A stretch of DNA of 40,979 bases from a virus (lineage: Duplodnaviria > Heunggongvirae > Uroviricota > Caudoviricetes), in IMG/VR virus record IMGVR_UViG_2675903468_000003, positions 1-40,979 of that record; one strand, 5' to 3'. The translations under genes and the position numbers were made by a program. Positions 2,911 to 21,968 of this stretch are shown here, piece after piece. Below the pieces are notes generated by a model. The model had not been told where the DNA came from and made no database searches. It saw only the letters and a program-made list of their open reading frames with translations. How positions within the stretch are numbered: position 1 is the first letter of the stretch; the number at the start of each line of letters is the position of its first letter.

Positions 2911-4935
2911 TTAGATTATGCAAACCTCAATCTCTGCCATCGCTGTGTGTGTCGAGCTAATTGCAGCCATGTCAATTGAAACTCGCATACCTCCTGCACC
3001 TGCAGCTGATCGTGATATTGTGAATGAACCGCTACGCCCACCATGATTTTGATGAATAACAACTGGTGTAGATGTTGTCACATTCATAAACTTGATATCA
3101 CATGTTGTCTGATCTCGCCCGTTTGCAGCCACTGTTGGTATGCTAAGCATGTTATATTTCACATAACACTGATGCCCGGCAGGCACAATAAAGAATCCTG
3201 CGTTAGTTACAGTCGTACCGTTAACGCGTGCGCTAATAGTAATCTTTCCATCTTCATGGAACCCATTATAACCAGCCCAGGCTGATGATATTTTAGAGTC
3301 AGGTACTGGCCCAAGAGTTTCACCAGTAGCAGAGTAAGAATTGCTTGAACTGAATATGAATTGACGAGAGTCAAATTCACCAGCACCAGAAGGTGCGACA
3401 ACTTTTAAAACCTCATTCACGGTTTGATTAAAACTGTTTCCTTCGATAAGCAAAGGAAATGCAAATCCTCCAGTCAAAACAGTGGTTGATTTAGAGACTA
3501 AGATAGCTACAGTATTCATTAGGAACCAGTTTCCAGATATGGTTTTTGCACATTCTGATGCCGGGTTTGTTACTGTGGATGGTATCAGGATGGTTAATCC
3601 AACTGGATTTTTTTCAACGGTATTACCAACGAAACTGAGTGTGACATTATAGCCGAACACAGCCCCTTGCACGGTGTTTTCTGATATTGTACATCCATGT
3701 ATTGTCTGGCTTCCGGCGTGGCCGGTTGCGCTTAATATGATACCTGACTTGTTCAGCACGAATTCACATCCAAAAAATCTATTTTGGTCTGAGTAACCAA
3801 AACCTAAACTATTACGATCTATTCTTACACCCACACCACACCATAGGGCACGTACTCCTATGAAATTATTCAGATAAACAGAACCGCGAAGAGTGAATGC
3901 GTGATCAAAATATCTAACATGTATATTTTCGAAAGAACACTCCCTAACATGATAATCTCCACCATTTACTGTTTCATCAACACTGAATGCATATCCAGCC
4001 CAGTCCGTTGATACATTGCTTACCCCTTCTAACATGATGTCCCGGATGACAACTCCGGTTATCCCGTAGGTAAATCTGAAACCGTCATAGGTCGGCACTA
4101 AAACGAAACCGTTAACCCCGACAGGAAATTTTAGACATGGCATTTGGCGAGCAGACACTGCAGATCCGCCATTGCCAGTGATTTTTATTGGTTTGCTGAT
4201 TATCAGTGGTGCTGTAAGATTGTAATATAAAGGTGGCGTTTGTACCGTTAGCGAACCGCCCCATGGGGTTGCATCGATAGCAGACTGAAAACCAGTTGTG
4301 TCATCATCTGTACCATTACCACTGGTGAACCAAACGGTTTTTATCTCATCGCCAATCTGTCGTTTCCATCTTTTTCCAGAAGCATCTACCAGTACAGTCC
4401 CACCGTTATCAGGTGTTGATGTGTCTGAAGCGTCAAGAAAAAACCAACCCTCACCCCCATCATTGTCATGTTCTCTTCCTACGCATTTTATTTGCGTTCC
4501 AGAAACGTTAGATGCCCTTATTTGTTCATAAGTCGCCCCAACAATATAAGACTCACCATCAACTGCTGCTAATTTGTCTATGAATGCTAGCAATGCCTGA
4601 TCAGGGTCATACTTCAGCACATTTGGGAATTTGAACTGCTGTGCACCATACGCATCATATACAGCCATAGAATGGCCTTGCACAGTTACGAATTTGGCAA
4701 TCTGTCCGTTATATACAGGGTAACCAGCGGCGTTAATGATGATTGGCTGCGAAACAGGAACGTGAGAACCGTCTTCATTCTCCACATAAACCTGAATCTG
4801 GTTTTCAGGATTTACCGGGTCAGTGTTAATTTTACCGATATAAATTTTGCCATTGGCAACCGCTTTAAAAGAACGCGCCATAGTGAAAAGTTGCGAAGGC
4901 ATGCTTACCACAACATTTGCGGTGATATCTGACAT
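2911..4935 (-). CDS. Tailspike protein (P22 gp9-like head-binding N-domain plus beta-helix receptor-binding domain)
   Basis: [59 protein letters not shown] matches the P22 tailspike N-terminal domain. Start trimmed from track ORF start 4983 to the MSDITA methionine. Confidence 0.85.
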
Positions 4936-5406: not shown

Positions 5407-7404
5407 CTATTCTGACAACGCATCAGACTTGGCACCCTGAGTAAGGGCGTTAATGGCCTTTTGCGCCTGCTGCATGGCTTTCTCAAACGCTGTTGATCCG
5501 CGTGGGGTGTTTGCCATTCGGAGCATTGCATTTCTGAATAGCTCGCTCTCATAGGCGCGAGTAAGAAGTCCGTAGCTTACTGCTGCGCCAGTTGTCGCCG
5601 GGTTCATTGCCGTCCCATATCCGATAATGAACGGGATGGTTTGCTGCCCTGTTGGTGTTGTTACTGCCGCTTTTGCAGCCTGTTGCGTGGATTGCAGGTA
5701 GTTTTTCAATCCTTTCAGATAAGCGGCTTCCTGACCTTTAAATGTGATGCCAGTCTGGTTTTGCAGGATGTTAAGCTGCCGAAGGAACTGGTCAGGGGAT
5801 CCGCCAGATTTCTCCATCGCCTTTCCAATGATGCCATTGCGCATTTGCGCTCTGCCAACACGACCAACTGAGTTATACAGCGTCTTAATTTCCGATTTGT
5901 TCTTGCTGAATAGCATGTTGTTGACAACTTCCGGCGTCAGGTCGCCTTTCATGAGAACATTCTTCAGCCTGGTATTCTTTAGTTTCGCTGCTTCGTCAGC
6001 GTATACGGCATTGGCCTGCTGATATTTACGGAGAGTATCGTTGCCAAGATTCTGACCAATGGCACCATTGATGTCGTCTGTCATCGCCTTGTAAACTCGC
6101 TGAATGGCAGCATCGGAACGGTTTGGTAACACTGGTCGCTCACCCTTCACGTCCATTCTGAACTGGCTGCGCAGGTCGCTTAATTGCTTCAAATCCAGAT
6201 TTACCGGACCATCAGGACCAGCATTGCGAACAAGCTCATCACGATAGGACTGAAGTTTTGAAATAGTCTCGTTATCAGCAACCTTACCAAGCTTCTGCAG
6301 GTTAGATATTTCTGTATCAATCTGCTGAATTGCTCGCGCAGGCTGAATGTTTACTCCAGCCATAGCATTCTGAACCTGCTCCAGTCGATTACCGGCAGCG
6401 CGACGAATTCCTGATGTTTTCGCTTTAAGGCTGTCAATAATAACCGCTGGATCATACTCACCGAATTTATCAGCAAATCTCTGCACCAACTGGCTTCTCG
6501 CTTCTTGTTGCGTTGCTCTCATTCCGCTTGTGCCAGCCAGAGGGATATTTTCTGCTGTAGTCTGCGCCATTTTTCCGACGCGGGAAGTGGGTTGTAACAG
6601 GTCTGTGGTGTGCAGAGGAACTCCTTCACGCTCTGCAAATCTGATAGCTTGCTGCGCTTCTGGCGCAATAGCACCGCGAACGCCACGATAAGCAGCACCT
6701 AATCCACGTCCAGCAGCGTTAATAGCGCCGCCTGCCAGAACGCCAACACCTAAATCGGTAGCGAGTGCCTCCGCATCATCTTTCATACTGTTTGCAGCAA
6801 GTGATCCAACTGCGTTTTCTGCGAGAAGGCGAGTTGCCCCCTGAGCAATTCGGCCAGCAAGTGTTGGTGCCTGTGTTGCCGCTCTCTCAACGCCAGCAGG
6901 AGTGATGTAAGGCAATGCTTCAGCAAACACCCGGCCCTCTGTCGTTTGTGGAGTCAGCGCGCCTTGCTGAAGGCCAAAATCCTGCTCTAATACCTGCGTT
7001 GTTACTCGTGGCGCTGGTTGATATGTACCATCGCCAATGCCGAGTTTACCGCCAGCCCATGCAGCCGCACTTGTTACAGCATCGGCAACTGATGCAGGTA
7101 TGTTTGCCACGTTCACGCCAGCCTGCACCAGTCCGCGACCAGTCTCTTTTACTGCTTCACCAAGATCAGACATAAATCCGCTTTGCTGTGGTTGTTGCTG
7201 TGCTACTGGTTGTTGTGTCTCCACTGGCCGCACAGATGGCAATGGATAGGCAGCATAGAAAGCTTGCTTAGCCTGCTCTGCATTTTCTCCGGCTTGCGGG
7301 GCCACGACTTCATTGAAGTATTGCTCCTGAGCCTGCGCTTTTTGTTCTGGTGCTAACGCCTGATACTGTGGAGAGGCGATAACATCTTTCCATGCTTTAG
7401 CCAT
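5407..7404 (-). CDS. Ejection/internal protein, P22 gp16-like
   Basis: Size and position match P22 gene order 7-20-16 upstream of the tailspike region. Confidence 0.75.
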   Translation of the reverse strand: MAKAWKDVIASPQYQALAPEQKAQAQEQYFNEVVAPQAGENAEQAKQAFYAAYPLPSVRPVETQQPVAQQQPQQSGFMSDLGEAVKETGRGLVQAGVNVANIPASVADAVTSAAAWAGGKLGIGDGTYQPAPRVTTQVLEQDFGLQQGALTPQTTEGRVFAEALPYITPAGVERAATQAPTLAGRIAQGATRLLAENAVGSLAANSMKDDAEALATDLGVGVLAGGAINAAGRGLGAAYRGVRGAIAPEAQQAIRFAEREGVPLHTTDLLQPTSRVGKMAQTTAENIPLAGTSGMRATQQEARSQLVQRFADKFGEYDPAVIIDSLKAKTSGIRRAAGNRLEQVQNAMAGVNIQPARAIQQIDTEISNLQKLGKVADNETISKLQSYRDELVRNAGPDGPVNLDLKQLSDLRSQFRMDVKGERPVLPNRSDAAIQRVYKAMTDDINGAIGQNLGNDTLRKYQQANAVYADEAAKLKNTRLKNVLMKGDLTPEVVNNMLFSKNKSEIKTLYNSVGRVGRAQMRNGIIGKAMEKSGGSPDQFLRQLNILQNQTGITFKGQEAAYLKGLKNYLQSTQQAAKAAVTTPTGQQTIPFIIGYGTAMNPATTGAAVSYGLLTRAYESELFRNAMLRMANTPRGSTAFEKAMQQAQKAINALTQGAKSDALSE

Positions 7405-12071: not shown

Positions 12072-12571
12072 TATTCGCTCCCGTTATCGCAAGGTTCCTT
12101 TCGGTGGAAGTAATTCCAACCGTTCCACTTCGCCAACTTGTTACCGCTACCAACAGGCATACGGTTTGGATAACCGGACTTACATTTAGCGGCTTTTGCT
12201 CTGTCCATTGCAGGCAGTTTGACGAGTCGCTCTTTCCCGTATCTGGCAGTGGTTATAAGTTTTGCAGACGCTTCCAGCGCATAATCCGGAGCAATGCGGC
12301 AGGCGAGGTTGAAAATGACGGCATTGATAGCGTTATTTGATAAACCGTGCTCATCGCCCGGATCCGGAGCGACATCTGCATCAGCAAAAATGTAGCCAAC
12401 GTTGATACCAGGTGACGCATCACCGCCAAGCCATTCAGCCATCATCATTTCAAGGTCGTTGACGCCGTCTTCCATAGACTGCGGTTCGACATCGGTTAAC
12501 GTGGCATTTGATGCCACACCGAGCTTACGTAATGCCGCAAGAACCAAATCACCCTTCGTTGTCAGGTTCAT
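12071..12571 (-). CDS. Tail adaptor protein, P22 gp4-like
   Basis: [43 protein letters not shown] and [14 protein letters not shown] resemble P22 gp4. Start trimmed to MNLTTKGD. Confidence 0.85.
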
Positions 12572-13136
12572 CTGCTGCCGCCTTAGGTTTTCTATCAGGC
12601 TTTTTACGCTGTTTTTCTTCTGGCTCTGCAATGGCCGGACGCAAACTCAGGAGTCGCCCAAGAACATCATTTGCTTCATGACCATCCCACTCTTTCCCGA
12701 ACTCAAGCTCAGTACCTTCAGGAAGGAACTCGATTTCTTCAACAGGTAGGTGATAAGTGATTTCGCCTTCTGGAGTGGTGATACCAGCAATGATCCAGCC
12801 ATCCCACTCTTCACCGTCACTGTGTTTGCGAGACCACCACGAAAGCTCAGCGTAAGCATGCATCAGCGATGAGAAGAGGCGCACTCGGTGAGCGTAAAGC
12901 TCGTTAAAAGTGTGATAACCGTCGGACACTTCGCCCATATCAACTGGGGAAGTTTCACCTCCGCCAACACTCCCAATTTGATCACCAACAAGAGGATCAT
13001 CAGGAACATCGTCAGGGTGCTTATACCAGCCATTTGCTAAGTGCACAGCTACATCATCAGGATCAACGGTTTTCGTTTTCAGCTTGCGCCCCCAGATTTT
13101 GGTATCTCCGCCAGCCTGAAAAATCATTACGCTCAT
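12549..13136 (-). CDS. Acidic hypothetical protein between coat and adaptor genes
   Basis: 196 aa from internal Met [10 protein letters not shown], preceded by GGAGA RBS-like sequence. Not part of the canonical P22 5-4 junction as I recall it. Short overlap with the gp4-like start. Confidence 0.55.
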
Positions 13137-13144
13137 TGGTATCT

Positions 13145-13172
13145 CCAATAGAAAAGGGAGCCGAAGCTCCCT
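13145..13172 (-). terminator. Intrinsic terminator-like hairpin after the coat gene
   Basis: GGGAGCTTCGGCTCCC followed by TTTTCTATT on the minus strand, directly after the coat stop codon. Confidence 0.5.
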
Positions 13173-13179
13173 CTGGTTA

Positions 13180-14475
13180 TCACGCGGTCTGGTTAGGCAG
13201 ACCAACACCAATTGCCTCTGGTCGTACAGCACATGCTGAATACCACACAGCAATACGGCACTTACCAGACAGAGTGTTGATATCACCCTGCGTTGCGAAG
13301 ATGCCGTTAACACCAATACCAGGAATGCTGAAGGAGGACGTTTTCATGCCAGCAAACAGTTCATGGGTTACCGGGATCGGCTGAGACAGCAGACGGATTG
13401 AGTCATCAGCCCAGAACACGTTAGCGGTGGTTGTTGCCACGTTCAGAACGTTTACCGGAGTGGTATCAGCAAGAGAGGTGTTTACGTTAGCGTAAGCCTT
13501 CTCTTCTTTTGTCAGTGACGCGTCATCCAGCGCAATCGGCTTCGGCGTGATTTCGATGCGAGTACCATCGATCACACGGGTGATTGAGAAAGTAGCATCA
13601 TCAGTCAGCACGTTCTTCGCCATCTGAGACAGGAATTTCACACCAGTGAAACTGATTTTGTCGCCGCGCTTAAACCCGGTGGTGGAGGATACGGTCACCG
13701 TTGCAACACGGTTGTCGACGTTCTCTTTGTTACCATCGGTATCAAGGGTGTATGCCTGCGGCTTAAACTTCTGCGCACCAGAAACAGTTACACCAGTAGC
13801 GGTTGACTTGGTAACTGCCGGAAGTTTCGGTGAGCGAAGAATTTCATCAAAGCCAGCAATCTGACGCTGAATAGTACCGTTGCGATACGTTTCTTCAGGA
13901 ACGCGCCCGAAGATGTCACCATCTACCAGGTTGCGGCCTGCTTTGCGGTAATCGTCAGGGTTCAGGAAGTAACTGATGCCCATATCGCGGTTTAGCTCAC
14001 GGGAGAACATCAGGCGCTCTGCATCAGACACAAAATCCCAGCCAGACAGGCCAGTAGATGGACCAATTGCGCGGGTATCGTGAACAACAAGCGAGCCCAT
14101 TTCAGTTGCCTGTTTGGCAATTGCTGACTCAATGTTATTCGCCAGTTTTTTGGCGGATGCCTGGATGCGGCGACGGTAAGAACGCTCATCACGCAGGTCA
14201 TCTGCACGAAGCTCGAAGAAATCGTTATCCGGATCGCCCATGTTGCATTTCACGGAGAGTTCCAGAATCCCGGTAGCGTTGCCAGTTAAATCCCAGCCAG
14301 TCTGAGTTGGCGCTTCCTGCTCAACAGGCATCCACACGGTGTTGCTTGAACGCTGCATGGATTCTGCCGGAGGGGTGTATTTTGTCACTTTGGACGCCAT
14401 TGGCGTCAGATTCTGGACGGTTTCGATGATTTCATCCAGAGCATACGTGACCAGTTGACCTTCATTTAATGCCAT
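13180..14475 (-). CDS. Major capsid (coat) protein, P22 gp5-like
   Basis: 431 aa with [20 protein letters not shown]...[20 protein letters not shown]...[14 protein letters not shown], strongly resembling P22 coat. Confidence 0.9.
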
Positions 14476-15386
14476 TATCGAATTCCTTTATTCAGTTGCG
14501 CCTTGAGCTTGCGGTACGTCTCTACATCCCCTTTGTTTGCTGCCGCTTCCATCTGCTTTTCAATCGCAGAGATATTTGCAGCAACAGCGTGTCCCTGAAT
14601 GGGTTCATCAGGTAACGGGGCTTCTGAAACAGACTTGGCTCGAGGCTTGAGAGTTAAACGTTCTGACAGTCGAGTGAGTTCAATCAGCGCGGATTGCCCG
14701 TCCATCGCCAGTAACTGGCGTGTTTTCTCAGGATTAGCACCAAGGTGATACATGAGAGCAGCGGATTTCTCCGGGAAGAGGCGCATGATGTCGGCACCGA
14801 CTGCTGGCGGAACCAGTTGCATGAATGCATCCTCTTTCTCCTGATAGTCAGGGATATTGAGCTTTTCCGCTGCGTCGTAGTGCTTACGGGCTGCCTCGAC
14901 GTATTGCGCTGATTGCTGGGTGAACTCCTGAGTTTTGCGACCCTGCTCGGCGACAGCCTGGCTTCGTGCGTCCATAGCCTTGATCTGCCATTCACTGTTT
15001 GCTTGCTGGAAGGCAGCCAGTGCGCGGCTCTGGTCATAGTCGTACTTAGCCAGTGCATCTTCGGAAAGATAATCGTTAGGGTCTGGTTGTTTTGGTAACT
15101 CAGGGTTCACCCGCAGGTGCTCCGGCAACTCTCCACGCTTAACCGCTTCCATCTGCTGCTCAAGCTCACGCTGGCGTTTGCGTTCGATGCGGCGACGGGC
15201 AAATTCAGCATTAGTTGCCGGGTCTTGTTTTGGTTTCTCATCGTCTTTCAGGACAATCTCGAAGCCTTCTTCCTGACCTGCGTTGTCGTTGGCATTATCG
15301 ACAACTAAGCCATCAGCAGATGCCGCTGCATGATTGCCGGGCAGGGTTAATTCTTCAGAAGCCTGAATGTCGGTGGTTTGGTCCAT
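14475..15386 (-). CDS. Scaffolding protein, P22 gp8-like
   Basis: 303 aa, charged and helical, between portal and coat. Confidence 0.85.
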
Positions 15387-15399
15387 GATTAACTCTCTC

Positions 15400-17568
15400 T
15401 TATTGAGGTGTCTCGGCTACTCCGCCGGAGGGGATTTGAACTTGACGCATAAGATTCGCGAAATCCATGCGTTGTGAATGAGTCTGGTCTGCATCTTTAA
15501 GAAGCAGCTCAGCGTTAGCGCGAGCATCTTTGCTGCGCTGTTGCTGGAATTGACCTACGAGCTTGAGGTACTCACGCAGTTCTGCCTGCTTGTCGAGGTC
15601 CATATTGTTGAAGATTTCTGCAATCTTCGCGGCGTTGAGTTGGTTTTGAGCTTCAACCTTGGCAGCTTCAACCTGAATCTGCGCCTGTTGGTTCTCTGCC
15701 TTGAGCAATTCAGCCTGACCTTGCAGAAGGATACCCTGCGCCTGAATTTGCTCTGCTGATGGCTGCTGCGGCTGCTGTTGCGCCTGTTGCACCATCTCCA
15801 TCTCTTCAGGTGTTTCTGGTTTCTTCAGACCCATCATCACCAGTTGCTTGTTCGCGTACTCTCGCATCATCTCGACGCCTTTACCGTCAAGCAGCGTGAA
15901 GTATTGCAGCATCAGCATCTGGAACTCTGGAGTACCTTGCGGAACCTTAGTGAGCAATTCCTGAATCTCTGCGCGGTTCTGTTCCTTCATGCTCTGGAAG
16001 GATGGCCCAACGTCTGTATAGCACTCATAGCGACCGCGAATGTCGTTGAGTGTGACCACATTACCGGACTGGTAATCTACAACTTGCGCGTAGAGTTGAA
16101 CGTCTTTCTCGCTTCCATCTTCAAGTGTCAGCGTTACATGACGAGGAACGTCATAAATATCGTTGACCATTGAGGCATAAATCTCGCCATCACGTCGCAT
16201 TGCGGTAGCCAGGTTATCCTGAAACACGTATGTCTCAAGATCTGCCCGCATGTTCAGTTGATTGACGGTATCGAAAGCGACCTGAGAGTTTGCCGCCTGC
16301 GCATCCACGCCAAGACTAGCCACCTCTTTCACTGCGTTGGTGGCAGCCTCAAGCATGTAAGCGTTGGCTTGCGGCACTTCAGGGTTTTCCATGTAGGAGA
16401 TTGGACCAATCGGCAGGTCGTTACCGTTTTCATCGGTCCTGTTCTGCAGATAGTACGGATAGTCATCATTTCCACCGTACATGTATTCGTAGCCTTCGAT
16501 TTGCTCAGGGAAGAAGGTCGGTTTCTTCTTCGGTGAACGGGCAACGATATCGGCGTTGAACGACATGATCATGTTACGAAGGCGTTGACCGTCTTTCGTC
16601 AGCCTTACCACTCCTTCGTAGCACTCCTTGTCACCAGCGAATGACCATTCGCCATACACTGGAACGATTGGAATATGCTCTCCGGCTATCTTCTCGCGGT
16701 CTTTCAGTATCTGCGTGCAGGTGATGATCGACTTATACACACGCCGACGCTTCACCTTGCGCTCTGCTACCTTAATGAATCCACGATTAGCCAGGTCGTC
16801 GATGACGTCTTTGATATCCTGCTGGTAATAGCTGACCGGCTCACCTGTCAGCGGGTCGCGGTAGATGAAGACCTTCTCCTTCTTCTCTTCTACCTCGTAA
16901 TACTCAGCGACGTAGACGACATCATTCGACACCCACGGGAATAGCCATGTATCGTTAGGATTCTGGAAAGATGGCAAGGTATCCGGGTCAATACCGTAAT
17001 CCTCTGCGAACTCTTTCCAGCCATTGCGCGACAAGGCGTTAATCACCGTGCAATGCTTAGCGTCGCTCTTATCCATCTGCTTGCTGTTGGCGTCCCATAT
17101 AACGTGTGAGCAAGCTTCATGGATTGGCAGGCGTCGGATTACCTGATTGTTGCTTGTTGGGTCGTTGTCTTCGTACTGCGTGACCAGACGCCATGCACCA
17201 ACGCCGGACTCTATCTGCTCACGAACGCCAACGTTAACGGCAATTTTTGCCGTGTTATGGCGCATATCAGTACGATACATCCCCATCAGCACATCGGCAG
17301 CATCAGGATTAGCTCCGTCTTTTGGTCTGAATAGAACGTCGATAGGGTTCCGGCGCATCTCTGCGACCAGCTTCCTGACCACCGGGCGAACAACATCGAA
17401 TTGTCCGCGATATTGCAGGGTGGTGTAGTTTGATAGCCAGTCATCCCATTGGCTTATGCGACTGAAGTATAAATCGTTAGAAGCTTCTGTTCTCGCCTCG
17501 TCGGAAGACATCCAATCAACATCGAATGCTTGCAGTATCTTATTTAATCGCTCTGCGTTGTCAGTCAT
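15400..17568 (-). CDS. Portal protein, P22 gp1-like
   Basis: 722 aa; [46 protein letters not shown] and later blocks resemble the P22 portal. Confidence 0.9.
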
Positions 17569-17618
17569 AACTTTACCGTGATAAAATCAATGGGACAACT
17601 TCAACAGGAGATTCTATT

Positions 17619-18119
17619 GTGAGCCATCCATCTATAGAAGATATAAGGAAAAATTTCACATACGATGCTGAAACCGGAATTTTGTACGCGGCTAATCGCA
17701 CAAGGAGGACAGACCTTAACGGCAAGCCAGTTGGGTGCCAGCATGGAAACGGATACCTTGATGTAAGGCTTGGTAAAAAACTGTACTACGTGCACAGAAT
17801 TTGTTTTGCGCACTACTATGGTTACTGGCCCGAAGCAGTAGATCACATAAACGGAAACCGTGCTGATAACCGCATCTGTAATCTTAGAGATGCCAATAAG
17901 CAGTTGAACGGACTAAACCGTGGCATGGATTGCGACAATTCAACTGGATACAAAGGAGTTTCCTATCGCAAGGACACAAATAACTACATGTGGCAATTTG
18001 TGGTAGAAGGCAAGAAATACACAAAAAGCGGATTCGCTACAGCATTAGATGCATACAAGCATAAAGTAGCATTTATTAACGCTCTGAATTCCGCTGCCTC
18101 TGAATTTCTCAAGCCGTAA
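17619..18119 (+). CDS. HNH endonuclease with AP2-like DNA-binding domain (free-standing, homing-type)
   Basis: HNH motif VDHINGNRADNRICNLRDAN and GYKGVSYRKDTNNYMWQFVVEGKKYTKSGFATALDAYKHKV. GTG start with AGGAG about 9 nt upstream. Opposite strand to the flanking portal and terminase genes. Confidence 0.8.
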   Translation: MSHPSIEDIRKNFTYDAETGILYAANRTRRTDLNGKPVGCQHGNGYLDVRLGKKLYYVHRICFAHYYGYWPEAVDHINGNRADNRICNLRDANKQLNGLNRGMDCDNSTGYKGVSYRKDTNNYMWQFVVEGKKYTKSGFATALDAYKHKVAFINALNSAASEFLKP

Positions 18120-18128
18120 CAACAGTAT

Positions 18129-19631
18129 CTATCTTGTTGACCGTGCGATGGGCCTGATTGGGGCTGGTATCTTTTTCTCTTTTGGTTTTTTGATGTCGCG
18201 CATCATTTTGGCGAAGCGGCGCATCATGTATGCATAGCGAACGGCTGATAGCACGTCGTCGTTAAGCTTGACGATCTTCCCGTTTTCATCACGGTGATAG
18301 AGGCGAAACTCCTCAAAGAATGGCTCACAGGTGTTGAATACTTTGAAGCGACCATCGAGCATCATGTCGCGCAATTCAGTGATGCCAGGCTCCACCGCGT
18401 TACCGCCATCAGGCCATGTCGCATGCTCCTGCAACATCATAAAACCAGCATCTGCATACTGCCCTTTGAGCTGCTCACCGCCGCCCTTCTCGTGCTGGTT
18501 TCCGTCATGAGGCCATGCTGTTGGCACTTTATGCGCCCATGATTTAACAGCTCCCCATGCCTGAACGGCTGTTTTTTCTTTCGCCTTCCACACGCGTGAA
18601 ACGTAGATTGTGTCTGCGTCCTTATCCCACCAAAGCTGAACCTGCGCCTGCGGGTGATCCCATCCGAAATCCATACCGCCAATTACGTAGAAGTGATCAG
18701 GACACTCGAACGGCTGACACTTAATCGTCTCTTCCGGTATCTGGAAGATTCGACCACTACCCATCGTAGGAATACCGCGAGCTCGAGCCTCTCTCTCATG
18801 CTCTGGATAGGATGCGATGATTTGCTCTTTCTGCTCGTCGGTATAGTGCTCAGCGTCATAGATGGTCATGTTGACCACTTTCTGCGACTTGCTGGGATTC
18901 TTCAGGAACTTGGTAACAACGTCAGACATCCCCATCAGCGGGGTAAACGTCAGGATTGAGAATTGCCCGTATTTGTTGGTACGGGTAAGCCCTTCGCCAT
19001 AAATGCTGTATGGTGGTTCTTCGTCAAACCACACTCCGTGGATTGTGTCACCCTGCCAGCGAGCACGACCTTGCGAGTATGGCTTGAAGTAGCAGATTGA
19101 AATGCCATCTTCAACGCCATCAGCCGTGTGATGCTTAACCAGAAGGTGATCAACAAGGTTCGGAAAGAAAGGAGACTTCTTCCAGCTAATGATGTCCTCT
19201 TTCGGTATGGAGCCGTAGCCAGGCTCATCATTCTCTTCGATACGACCGCACAGGATGCGTTGAGTCGTTTTGGTTACAGTCTCGTTTGTCTCTCCACCAA
19301 TCCAGAAGACAACAGGCTCATAGAAACGCTTACCTTTCCACTCCCCGCCATATTTACCATCAGCCGGATAGCCTTTTGTTCCCGGGTAACGCCCGGTAAG
19401 GTGAAACGCGACTTCAGCAGCACCAGTAAATGACTTACCAAGCTGGTTACCAGCCATAAAACATCGCTCTGGATAGTCATGTCCGGCGTCGATGAACTCA
19501 CGCTGTTTGCTGTATGGCGTAAATTCATATAGCAGGTGTGTGTTCCGGTAGTTCTCTTCTTCTTCGAGTAGTTCGAGCAATTCGATTTGCTCTTCGTCGC
19601 TCAGGTTATCAAGAATCGCGTCCAGTTCCAC
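18129..19631 (-). CDS. Terminase large subunit, P22 gp2-like
   Basis: 500 aa; [37 protein letters not shown] matches the P22 TerL N-terminus. Confidence 0.9.
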
Positions 19632-20097
19632 GGTTGAATAGCTCCTTGATACGAGAGCGCCGCTTATCGCGATCTCCCTTATCAGGTGTCACGTCTTCAA
19701 CTTGCGACTGCTCTTTGAGGCCCAAATCACGGGCGATGATGTTAGCGTTGAGAAGGTCAGCGGCTGCGCCAGAGAATTTCTGGTCGTAGATGACCTGCTC
19801 TGCTCGCGTAACGACTTCAGATAAATCTTCTCGCAGGCGATATGTGCGCCATGTTTCAAGAGTCACATCAATGAACAGAGTGAGGCCTGTAATGGTCATC
19901 GCTCGCATCTTGGCGATAGGTTCTTGTATCACTTCACCCTGATACGAGAACGCCTTCATCTCCCATAGCGGGTTAGCTTCCACCCACTCGAAGTATTCAC
20001 AACAAGCAGCCCACAGCGCCTCAGGCGATTCGAATTTAGGATTTCGCCCATGACTACTGCGGGCCTCCCAAAATCGGTTGCCCTTTGGTGCTGCCAT
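19609..20097 (-). CDS. Terminase small subunit, P22 gp3-like
   Basis: [38 protein letters not shown]... matches P22 gp3. Start trimmed to MAAPKG. Contains the pac sequence. Confidence 0.9.
19803..19830 (-). other. pac site (headful packaging initiation), P22-type
   Basis: Minus strand reads GAAGATTTATCTGAAGTCGTTACGCGAG, the P22 pac sequence as I recall it, at codons about 92-101 of the small-terminase gene. Confidence 0.6.
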
Positions 20098-20120
20098 ATT
20101 CATCTCACTTAGTTGTTATT

Positions 20121-21476: not shown

Positions 21477-21626
21477 TTACATAACCTGCTCGATTTTCCT
21501 GAGAACATCACCGTGTCGCTTGCCGAAGTACTTGGCAATTTTTCTGGATGTGGTAACGACCTCTCCGTTTTTGGCTTGCACCATTTCTCGGAAGTCGAAG
21601 GCTGGAATAACTGAATGATTATTCAT
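21477..21626 (-). pseudogene. Rha-family regulator N-terminal fragment (truncated)
   Basis: MNNHSVIPAFDFREMVQAKNGEVVTTSRKIAKYFGKRHGDVLRKIEQVM then a stop. The motif matches the N-terminal region of phage Rha proteins, but the roughly 200 aa that normally follow are missing. Confidence 0.45.
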
Positions 21627-21768
21627 AGCGTCTTTACCTTTTAGAAAGTGAGCCTGTCTCACAGAAAAGCCGCCCGAGAGAGGTCGCCACCTATAACGGC
21701 ATTTCTCAGGCTCGCTTACTGAAAGGCTCTCGTTAATATGCGCGTGAGATGCGCTGTGAAATTCAGAT

Positions 21769-21795
21769 ATAAAAAGCCCCGCGAATGCGAGGCTA
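21769..21795 (-). terminator. Intrinsic terminator-like hairpin downstream of Rz
   Basis: Minus strand CCTCGCATTCGCGGGG followed by CTTTTTAT. Confidence 0.4.
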
Positions 21796-21968
21796 AATCC
21801 TGGTATTTGTAATGAACTGGCTCTTATCTCAACGCAGCCCCTTACTGCGCGCCAGATACTCAATATCAAGCATCAGCAATGAGATGTTTAATCTGGATTT
21901 ACTCCAGAAGTGATCACCACCCTGTCTACAGAGCCAGATGTGAAGGATGATGAGTAAAATTATCGCTA

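Follow-up and report, generated by a model that had tools for sequence, protein, structure and literature searches.

A Free-Standing HNH Endonuclease Gene at the Terminase-Portal Junction of a P22-Like Escherichia coli Phage: Evidence Consistent with Intronless Homing

Introduction

Why should a P22-like phage carry a nuclease gene, on the opposite strand, between two genes of its packaging operon? This question is raised by the window, a term used here for the whole stretch of DNA analysed, namely the 40,979 nucleotides of IMG/VR record IMGVR_UViG_2675903468_000003. The window is the genome of a P22-like (Lederbergvirus-type) E. coli phage or prophage whose nearest deposited relative is phage IME10. 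An integrase gene lies at its start, and its late operon, encoded on the minus strand, comprises the genes for the small terminase (TerS), large terminase (TerL), portal, scaffold and coat. The portal and TerL genes are separated by a gap of exactly 560 bp (17569-18128), which is filled by a single plus-strand open reading frame (ORF) of 166 codons. An earlier note, made from the sequence alone, had described an opposite-strand 166-aa nuclease gene in a gap of roughly 560 bp and proposed that it behaves as a homing endonuclease or selfish insertion; the described layout proved exact to the base. In the following, we argue that the ORF is a free-standing HNH-AP2 (I-HmuI-like) homing endonuclease gene that would spread by intronless homing on a cassette of about 689 bp, a reading to which we assign a probability of roughly 85%.

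Results

Presence and Absence of the Gene at the Junction

The TerL-portal junction was searched for in 5,426 complete E. coli genomes and in 50,697 phage records. It was found in 215 of the E. coli genomes, two of which carried the insert (98% identical), corresponding to an occupancy of about 1%. Among the approximately 110 phage records with the junction, the insert was present in phage SEN22 only, which is represented by two records. Empty alleles, whose existence the earlier note had made the test of its proposal, were thus the rule, with about 213 of the 215 E. coli genomes and about 108 of the 110 phage records lacking the insert. In phages IME10 and Dewey, as well as in the prophages of E. 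coli E9 and of a genome labelled DH5alpha, the flanks are 97-99% identical to those of the window, and the TerL stop codon TAA is directly followed by the portal ATG. Furthermore, the TerL stop and the portal start overlap as TAATG in the P22-type Salmonella phages ST64T and epsilon34. The order in all six is the contiguous one that the earlier note had assumed for P22. Sporadic presence at one precise site, with the flanking genes intact, is what is expected of a homing gene. An intron- or intein-encoded endonuclease was rejected, since the gene lies between the two flanking ORFs and interrupts neither of them, each being complete; in addition, an Rfam scan of positions 17200-18500, with E values up to 1, gave no family match and no intron RNA. 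A search of genome contigs for further relatives yielded no confirmable match.

Note that the empty junction of one genome labelled E. coli DH5alpha (NZ_CP026085.1; locus L007) is accompanied by a GIY-YIG nuclease gene upstream of the packaging genes (5803-6288 of that locus), which may be another homing-type nuclease at another site. A P22-like prophage is present in two records labelled DH5alpha, although none would be expected in that laboratory strain.

Properties of the Encoded Protein

The encoded protein matched Pfam HNH_3 with 50.1 bits (cutoff 24.8; E 2e-13) over residues 56-98 and PHROG_99 (HNH endonuclease) with an E value of 5e-50, and all 11 close family members matched HNH_3. The sole solved structure found by sequence search was that of I-HmuI (PDB 1U3E), with whose residues D74, H75, N87 and N96 the residues D75, H76, N88 and N97 of the window protein align. 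These four residues were invariant across the 11 close family members (66-99% identical relatives). Across 68 homologues, with identities down to about 30%, D75, H76 and N88 were again invariant and N97 was at least 90% conserved, so that the HNH active site, on whose integrity the earlier note had made its reading depend, is intact. An AlphaFold2 model built from the homologue alignment reached a mean predicted local distance difference test score (pLDDT) of 93.5 and a predicted template modelling score (pTM) of 0.82, and the beta-beta-alpha-metal fold of HNH/His-Me finger endonucleases was found. The name "HNH/AP2-type" used in the earlier note holds by fold and by family context: the combination of HNH and AP2 is a recognised homing-endonuclease architecture (PMC10448857), and many distant homologues carry Pfam AP2 (PF00847) together with HNH_3 (PF13392). 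The Pfam AP2 match itself was below threshold in the window protein (E 0.083, residues 109-141). As judged from the alignments and the modelled fold, the gene encodes an HNH nuclease of the I-HmuI-like type, predicted to be active, whose C-terminal part probably forms an AP2-like domain for DNA binding.

We also examined how the gene has been maintained. Purifying selection was evident over its whole length, with nonsynonymous divergence (pN) of 0.08-0.22 against saturated synonymous divergence (pS) of 0.75-0.9 between alleles. The ratio of nonsynonymous to synonymous rates (dN/dS) was 0.065 in the single pair for which it could be computed, synonymous sites being saturated in all other pairs. 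Together, these values indicate that the gene is old, intact and under purifying selection. Proteins 99-100% identical to it are present in public data, and no decayed or pseudogene copies were seen among 13 lineages of close relatives.

Extent and Structure of the Cassette

When the window was aligned to four empty alleles, with which it otherwise shows a background divergence of 2-3%, the unusual sequence did not end at the borders of the gap. The first 39 codons of the portal gene were foreign, many of their mismatches being spaced 3 nt apart, and the last 12 bp of the TerL gene were rewritten (Table 1). The mobile unit is therefore about 689 bp long (17452-18140) and includes these portal codons; the reading of a mobile gene in the gap, made in the earlier note, is supported, while its extent of 560 bp was too small, as the diverged portal and TerL ends belong to the insertion. 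GC content across the insert is 0.42-0.45 compared with about 0.51 around it, and the sign of the AT skew flips. A CACGG direct repeat at both cassette edges was considered too short for interpretation.

The same portal block was seen in a second, independent lineage. When SEN22 was compared with ST64T, the diverged block was again exactly the first 117 bp of the portal gene, and the TerL side was unchanged. Linked alteration of flanking sequence, as expected of a homing gene, was thus found in two independent lineages. In the complete E. coli genomes, the portal block and the intergenic sequence occurred only in the two that bear the gene. Furthermore, the identity of the block followed that of the gene and not that of the portal. 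Loci L002 and L022 share 94% identity in the gene, 94% in the block and 79% in the rest of the portal gene, and the corresponding values for L022 and L026 are 77%, 76% and 95%, indicating that the block travels with the endonuclease gene. There were exceptions, such as L011 versus L026, indicating that recombination between gene and block also happens. These comparisons point to the 117-bp block as a putative cleavage-immune allele and obligatory co-conversion segment. Its inner edge, which in both lineages is the start of a conserved QWDDW-coding sequence, fits a minimal co-converted segment reaching from the insertion point to a recognition or cleavage site that would lie there. In six of six empty alleles read, the portal gene begins with ATGGCCGAC (MAD...), and all occupied alleles differ from this at the portal start (MTD, MDN, MEN or MDF); on present alignments these differences are candidate target features only.

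Promoter-Like Element and Associated Conserved Sequences

A scan detected a sigma-70-type promoter-like element ahead of the gene (Table 1). Its -35 hexamer falls, on the opposite strand, within codons 2-4 of the portal gene, which would explain in functional terms why the endonuclease gene and the portal 5' end move together. Over eight diverged lineages, the TTG of the -35, the portal start codon, a CGT, the TA..AT of the -10, a TGGGA located 4 nt downstream and the 18-nt spacing were invariant, and the remainder of the promoter region was variable. This conservation supports the prediction of an autonomous promoter for the endonuclease gene. In addition, purine-rich Shine-Dalgarno-like motifs were present in other lineages at the position equivalent to that of the window. 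A collision of endonuclease transcription with late transcription, which the earlier note had anticipated, is plausible from this arrangement.

The TGGGA-containing motif forms one arm of an inverted repeat that flanks the diverged portal block and the endonuclease promoter; the repeat was found in the window and in L002, L008, L011, L022, L026, L027, L034 and L036-L042. In every lineage, base pairing of the two arms in the late transcript is possible over 6-14 bp, and over 13 bp in the window; the ribosome-binding site and start codon of the portal gene would be enclosed. However, covariation of the arms was weak and inconsistent, L036 and L041 giving C-A and L022 giving A-C. An RNA helix joining sequence upstream of the portal start with portal codons 40-44 was therefore not upheld, and the repeat was left unexplained. 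The motif is not conserved as coding sequence: the conserved ATG at 17590 is in frame in SEN22 and S. houtenae, giving a 175-aa product, whereas in the window a 2-nt difference shifts the frame, and this ATG was rejected as the true start. Note that a 10-codon mini-ORF (ATGGGACAACTTCAACAGGAGATTCTATTGTGA, 17590-17622) starts at this ATG, its TGA stop overlapping the endonuclease GTG. A hairpin with a downstream T run, resembling a terminator (CTGTGCACGTAGTACAG TTTTTTACCA), at 17781-17797 on the minus strand inside the gene, was dismissed as being at chance level for the region and, by eye, not conserved in SEN22.

Spread and Site Specificity

We next compared 11 carriers of the E. coli-type allele, comprising the window, two genomes and eight IMG/VR contigs. 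The cassette had 10 polymorphic sites in 689 positions, against 249 in 3543 for the adjoining portal and TerL sequences (Fisher p 1.9e-10), and the trough of polymorphism extended from about 17420 to 18210. In another allele lineage, L008 (an Obesumbacterium proteus assembly with an Sf6-type terminase) and L009 (a metagenome sequence with a P22-type terminase) share a block of about 760 bp that is 100% identical. This block includes about 150 bp of the portal gene at one end and about 60 bp of TerL at the other, with the endonuclease gene and the intergenic region between them. Outside it, the portal genes are 89-96% identical and the TerL genes only about 60%. Horizontal spread between genomes, as expected of a homing gene, was thus observed, a passive cause of the trough being possible in part. 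The low-diversity trough and the L008/L009 identity form the pattern that recent movement of the cassette into diverged genomes would be expected to leave.

The site of insertion was constant. All 13 distinct close lineages that could be placed (65-100% protein identity), which came from E. coli, Salmonella diarizonae and houtenae, Obesumbacterium and metagenomes, had the gene at a junction of TerL with a P22-type portal gene, always antisense. On the other hand, the neighbouring terminases were of at least four types, namely P22 gp3/gp2, Sf6, one with a Terminase_2 small subunit and one with a large subunit without a Pfam match. The constant partner is the portal and not the terminase, which suggests a target in the portal 5' region. 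Furthermore, two distant HNH_3 homologues, at 3411-3887 of L032 (47%) and 1624-2094 of L033 (37%), lie in sense orientation at junctions of a terminase gene with a P22-family portal gene, the large terminases there being of Terminase_6 or Terminase_3 type. The portal-proximal junction looks like a recurrent landing site for this HNH_3 nuclease family, to judge from gene positions in these genomes.

Two observations on neighbouring sequences are added here. In some relatives, a second antisense HNH_3 gene is located between scaffold and coat (L005, 1-175, from E. coli 19451123, WP_029403254.1; L011, 296-844); it is 31% identical to the window endonuclease and has the same HNH and AP2-like layout, and in the window, which is without it, the scaffold and coat genes abut. 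In addition, the last ~17 residues of TerL (KEKK[A/I]PAPIR...) are common to otherwise unrelated TerL types. The L008/L009 recombination breakpoint (~4500-4560) falls in this shared tail, which may be an exchange boundary.

Table 1. Positions of the endonuclease gene, the elements of its cassette and the adjoining late genes in the window.
Feature	Position	Strand	Details
Endonuclease ORF	17619-18119	+	166 codons (166 aa); GTG start, TAA stop
Shine-Dalgarno AGGAG	17606-17610	+	8 nt 5' of the endonuclease GTG; read from the sequence
Sigma-70-type promoter-like element	17558-17587	+	10/12 matches plus TG, by scan
Promoter parts		+	-35 TTGTCA 17558-17563; 18-nt spacer; TG 17579-17580; -10 TAAAAT 17582-17587
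TGGGA-containing conserved motif, inverted-repeat arm	17588-17600		Just downstream of the -10; present in all lineages
Partner inverted-repeat arm	17439-17451		Portal codons 40-44, QWDDW
Foreign first 39 portal codons	17452-17568	-	~48 mismatches in 117 bp (~41%) against four empty alleles; inner edge sharp
Rewritten TerL 3' end, other cassette edge	18129-18140	-	12 bp; ...ARSTR* against ...ARRT* in empty alleles
Portal gene (P22 gp1 type), presumed endonuclease target	15400-17568	-	Pfam P22_portal, E 9e-163
Large terminase gene, TerL (P22 gp2 type)	18129-19631	-	Pfam Terminase_6N and Terminase_6C
Small terminase gene, TerS (P22 gp3 type)	19609-20103	-	Pfam GP3_package
Scaffold gene	14475-15386	-	
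Coat gene	13180-14475	-	

Discussion

The selfish or homing character suggested in the earlier note is supported by the empty sites, the intact active site, the drop in polymorphism across the cassette and the identical cassette in different phage backgrounds. From these, we propose the following course of events. The endonuclease gene would be transcribed from its own sigma-70-type promoter, counter to the late operon. When a related genome without the cassette is present in the same cell, through co-infection or through superinfection of a lysogen, it would be nicked or cut within or beside the portal 5' end, that is, in the first ~40 codons of the common allele. Recombinational repair on the cassette-bearing template would then copy in the gene together with the 39 portal codons and the altered TerL end. 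The linked portal segment, which would also supply the promoter -35, may be diverged enough to escape recognition, and this diverged block and the rewritten TerL end would render the carrier resistant. I-HmuI nicks one strand; by analogy with this nicking enzyme, nick-initiated homing is possible.

Several points weigh against this proposal. A gene drive that works efficiently would be expected to exceed the occupancy of about 1% seen in E. coli. The classical cycle of invasion, decay and loss predicts decayed copies; since none was seen, the gene could be kept for phage benefit and not by drive alone. The cassette is without a homologue in the majority population and cannot recombine with it, as the flanks can, so the polymorphism trough could arise partly passively, without active homing. 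Expression may be very low because the gene is antisense to a late operon with strong transcription, an argument made for T4 segD (PMC2988022), and the AP2 match, as described above, does not reach the Pfam threshold.

Other explanations have to account for the same observations. The gene adjoins the large terminase gene, and HNH proteins help cos cleavage in HK97-like phages (PMC10448857), so that a terminase-associated packaging factor similar to HK97 gp74, aiding cutting by the terminase, might be considered. Factors of that type are likewise HNH-superfamily nucleases encoded beside terminase genes, but they are conserved, single-domain parts of cos-phage packaging, co-oriented and upstream of the small terminase gene (PMC10448857). 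The window gene, in contrast, is sporadic, antisense and two-domain, and is accompanied by a P22 gp3-type small terminase. It is on the strand opposite to the packaging operon and downstream of TerL, is absent from about 99% of close relatives, which package normally, and was found beside at least four unrelated terminase types. In addition, the annotation of the relative epsilon34 includes a pac site, and HNH_3 combined with an AP2-like domain is the architecture of homing endonucleases. Assignment to the HK97 gp74 type was thus rejected, the gene being neither a conserved component of the packaging module nor co-oriented upstream of the terminases in a cos phage, and a role in packaging is scarcely credible; the statement of the earlier note that the gene is not needed for cos cleavage in a headful phage agrees with its sporadic, antisense occurrence beside a P22 gp3-type TerS. 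Very improbable, too, is that the gene has become a relic without activity or that its product has been re-purposed for DNA binding. Such a protein would not cut, and the gene would either be passive or adjust the expression of terminase and portal, by way of the AP2-like domain or of an antisense transcript. The insert does break the terminase-portal stop/start coupling of the empty alleles, and the predicted antisense promoter is directed into the terminase gene. In addition, the portal start lies between the arms of a conserved inverted repeat, and AP2 domains have repeatedly been re-used as regulators (PMC10448857). However, a protein that no longer cuts is difficult to reconcile with the invariance of all four active-site residues in close relatives and of D75, H76 and N88 in distant homologues or with purifying selection along its whole length, and the sporadic distribution and identical cassettes in unrelated backgrounds indicate current mobility.

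A benefit to the phage is harder to set apart from homing. The gene might be a domesticated exclusion weapon, kept because it serves the phage, homing being a by-product. In the lysogen, or at an early stage of infection, the nuclease would be produced from the gene's host-type promoter and would damage superinfecting or co-infecting P22-like phages with the common portal allele; the packaging and portal region of the carrier would then predominate among the progeny (marker exclusion). This agrees with a conserved, predicted sigma-70-type promoter independent of the late operon, with strong purifying selection and no decayed copies in 13 lineages, and with the persistence of an old lineage, its synonymous sites saturated, at one junction; moreover, T4 homing endonucleases cause marker exclusion of T2 (PMC2988022). 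Against it stands the frequency of only about 1% among E. coli P22-like prophages. Furthermore, PADLOC gave a weak match (E 1e-4) to its generic "homing endonuclease" model only and NCBIfam gave none, so that membership in a defence system was rejected. The chemistry would be that of homing, and the sequence data do not separate the two. Overall, we regard a domesticated weapon as quite unlikely. A small but real chance may be given to a speculative combination, in which the cassette would be a self-contained gene drive and exclusion module adapted to temperate phages: constitutively expressed from the host-type promoter in the lysogen, it would cut the conserved portal 5' region of incoming P22-like phages and carry an immune allele of an essential gene, with the -35 placed in portal codons 2-4. 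The TGGGA repeat could then be an operator copy of the homing site, mediating autorepression as in I-TevI, or, alternatively, its arms could pair at long range in the late mRNA and so restore the translation of portal that was lost with the coupling.

The free-standing homing endonuclease gene that we favour has close parallels among known systems. SEN22 is a viable isolated phage, whose authors named its insert a homing endonuclease gene (PMC5261728), indicating that the insertion is compatible with phage growth. Its gene (SEN22_3, YP_009191456.1) resembles that of the window in lying antisense at the TerL-portal junction and encoding 166 aa, with about 69% protein identity, and shares the conserved promoter-like element; its portal gene also has the diverged 117-bp block when set against ST64T, the nearest relative with an empty site. 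It differs in being a distinct allele (~67-70% nucleotide identity, synonymous sites saturated) in a Salmonella phage, with a portal block only 58% identical to that of the window and an untouched TerL end, which in the window is rewritten. I-HmuI of Bacillus phage SPO1 shares the D/H/N/N active site, but is encoded within a group I intron of the DNA polymerase gene, whereas the window gene is free-standing and intergenic; the C-terminal DNA-binding modules of I-HmuI differ from the AP2-like domain of the window protein. An N-terminal HNH and a C-terminal AP2-type domain, the order predicted for the window protein, are seen in the HNH-AP2 enzymes of phages, cyanobacteria and protists, including the IPA-HNH of Vibrio phage ICP1. 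HNH-AP2 genes, like the window gene, tend to be found where genetic exchange has its boundaries, beside essential genes for packaging or structure (PMC10448857). The HNH domains of ICP1 are too diverged for the HNH_3 profile, unlike the window gene, which is a clear HNH_3 member with AP2 below the Pfam threshold.

In T4, intronless homing with co-conversion is established for the seg and mob genes (PMC2988022), which are likewise intergenic between essential genes. They move by cleavage of the empty allele and co-conversion of flanks, sometimes with a distant cleavage site (SegG), and for the window gene this likeness is at the level of a proposal. The T4 homing endonuclease genes are co-oriented with their neighbours, segD being the sole exception, and many are without their own promoter (PMC2988022). 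The segD gene lies antisense between capsid genes 23 and 24, with no recognisable promoter (PMC2988022), so that antisense placement has a precedent. The window gene differs from the T4 genes in having a conserved, predicted host-type promoter partly within portal codons, and in residing in a temperate phage.

The element had been noticed before in SEN22; the window gene adds a new allele of it and is a clear but ordinary example of its kind. Nothing is overturned, as homing endonuclease genes beside packaging and structural genes are well documented and the junction had been noted in SEN22. Four points were not found described in the literature consulted, namely the 689-bp cassette with its embedded promoter and linked portal codons, the strict specificity for the portal junction across terminase types, the occupancy of about 1% and the diversity trough; these are useful yet will not surprise a specialist. 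The locus provides a clean natural example of apparent intronless homing in the temperate and genetically tractable P22-like group. Its experimental assets are abundant empty alleles, several diverged alleles at one site and a sharply bounded "immunity" segment in an essential gene. It would be a convenient system for studying homing endonucleases and mosaic boundaries in temperate phages, expression from the prophage, and the encounter of an antisense selfish gene with a long antiterminated late operon. For annotation, the lesson is that an HNH gene beside a terminase gene is not automatically a packaging factor.

Other Features of the Window

Two further ORFs on the minus strand of the window were noted. 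Between the coat and gp4 tail-accessory genes, the ORF at 12549-13316, in which a WDGH domain was recognised (Pfam PF25311, E 2e-39), looks like an additional gene of the late operon. At 21477-21869, a 130-aa ORF has a sub-threshold Pfam match to the Rha regulator, confined to its last 24 residues and to the beginning of the profile. The Rha gene is full-length at this place in relatives, and the ORF of the window may be a truncated or disrupted copy.

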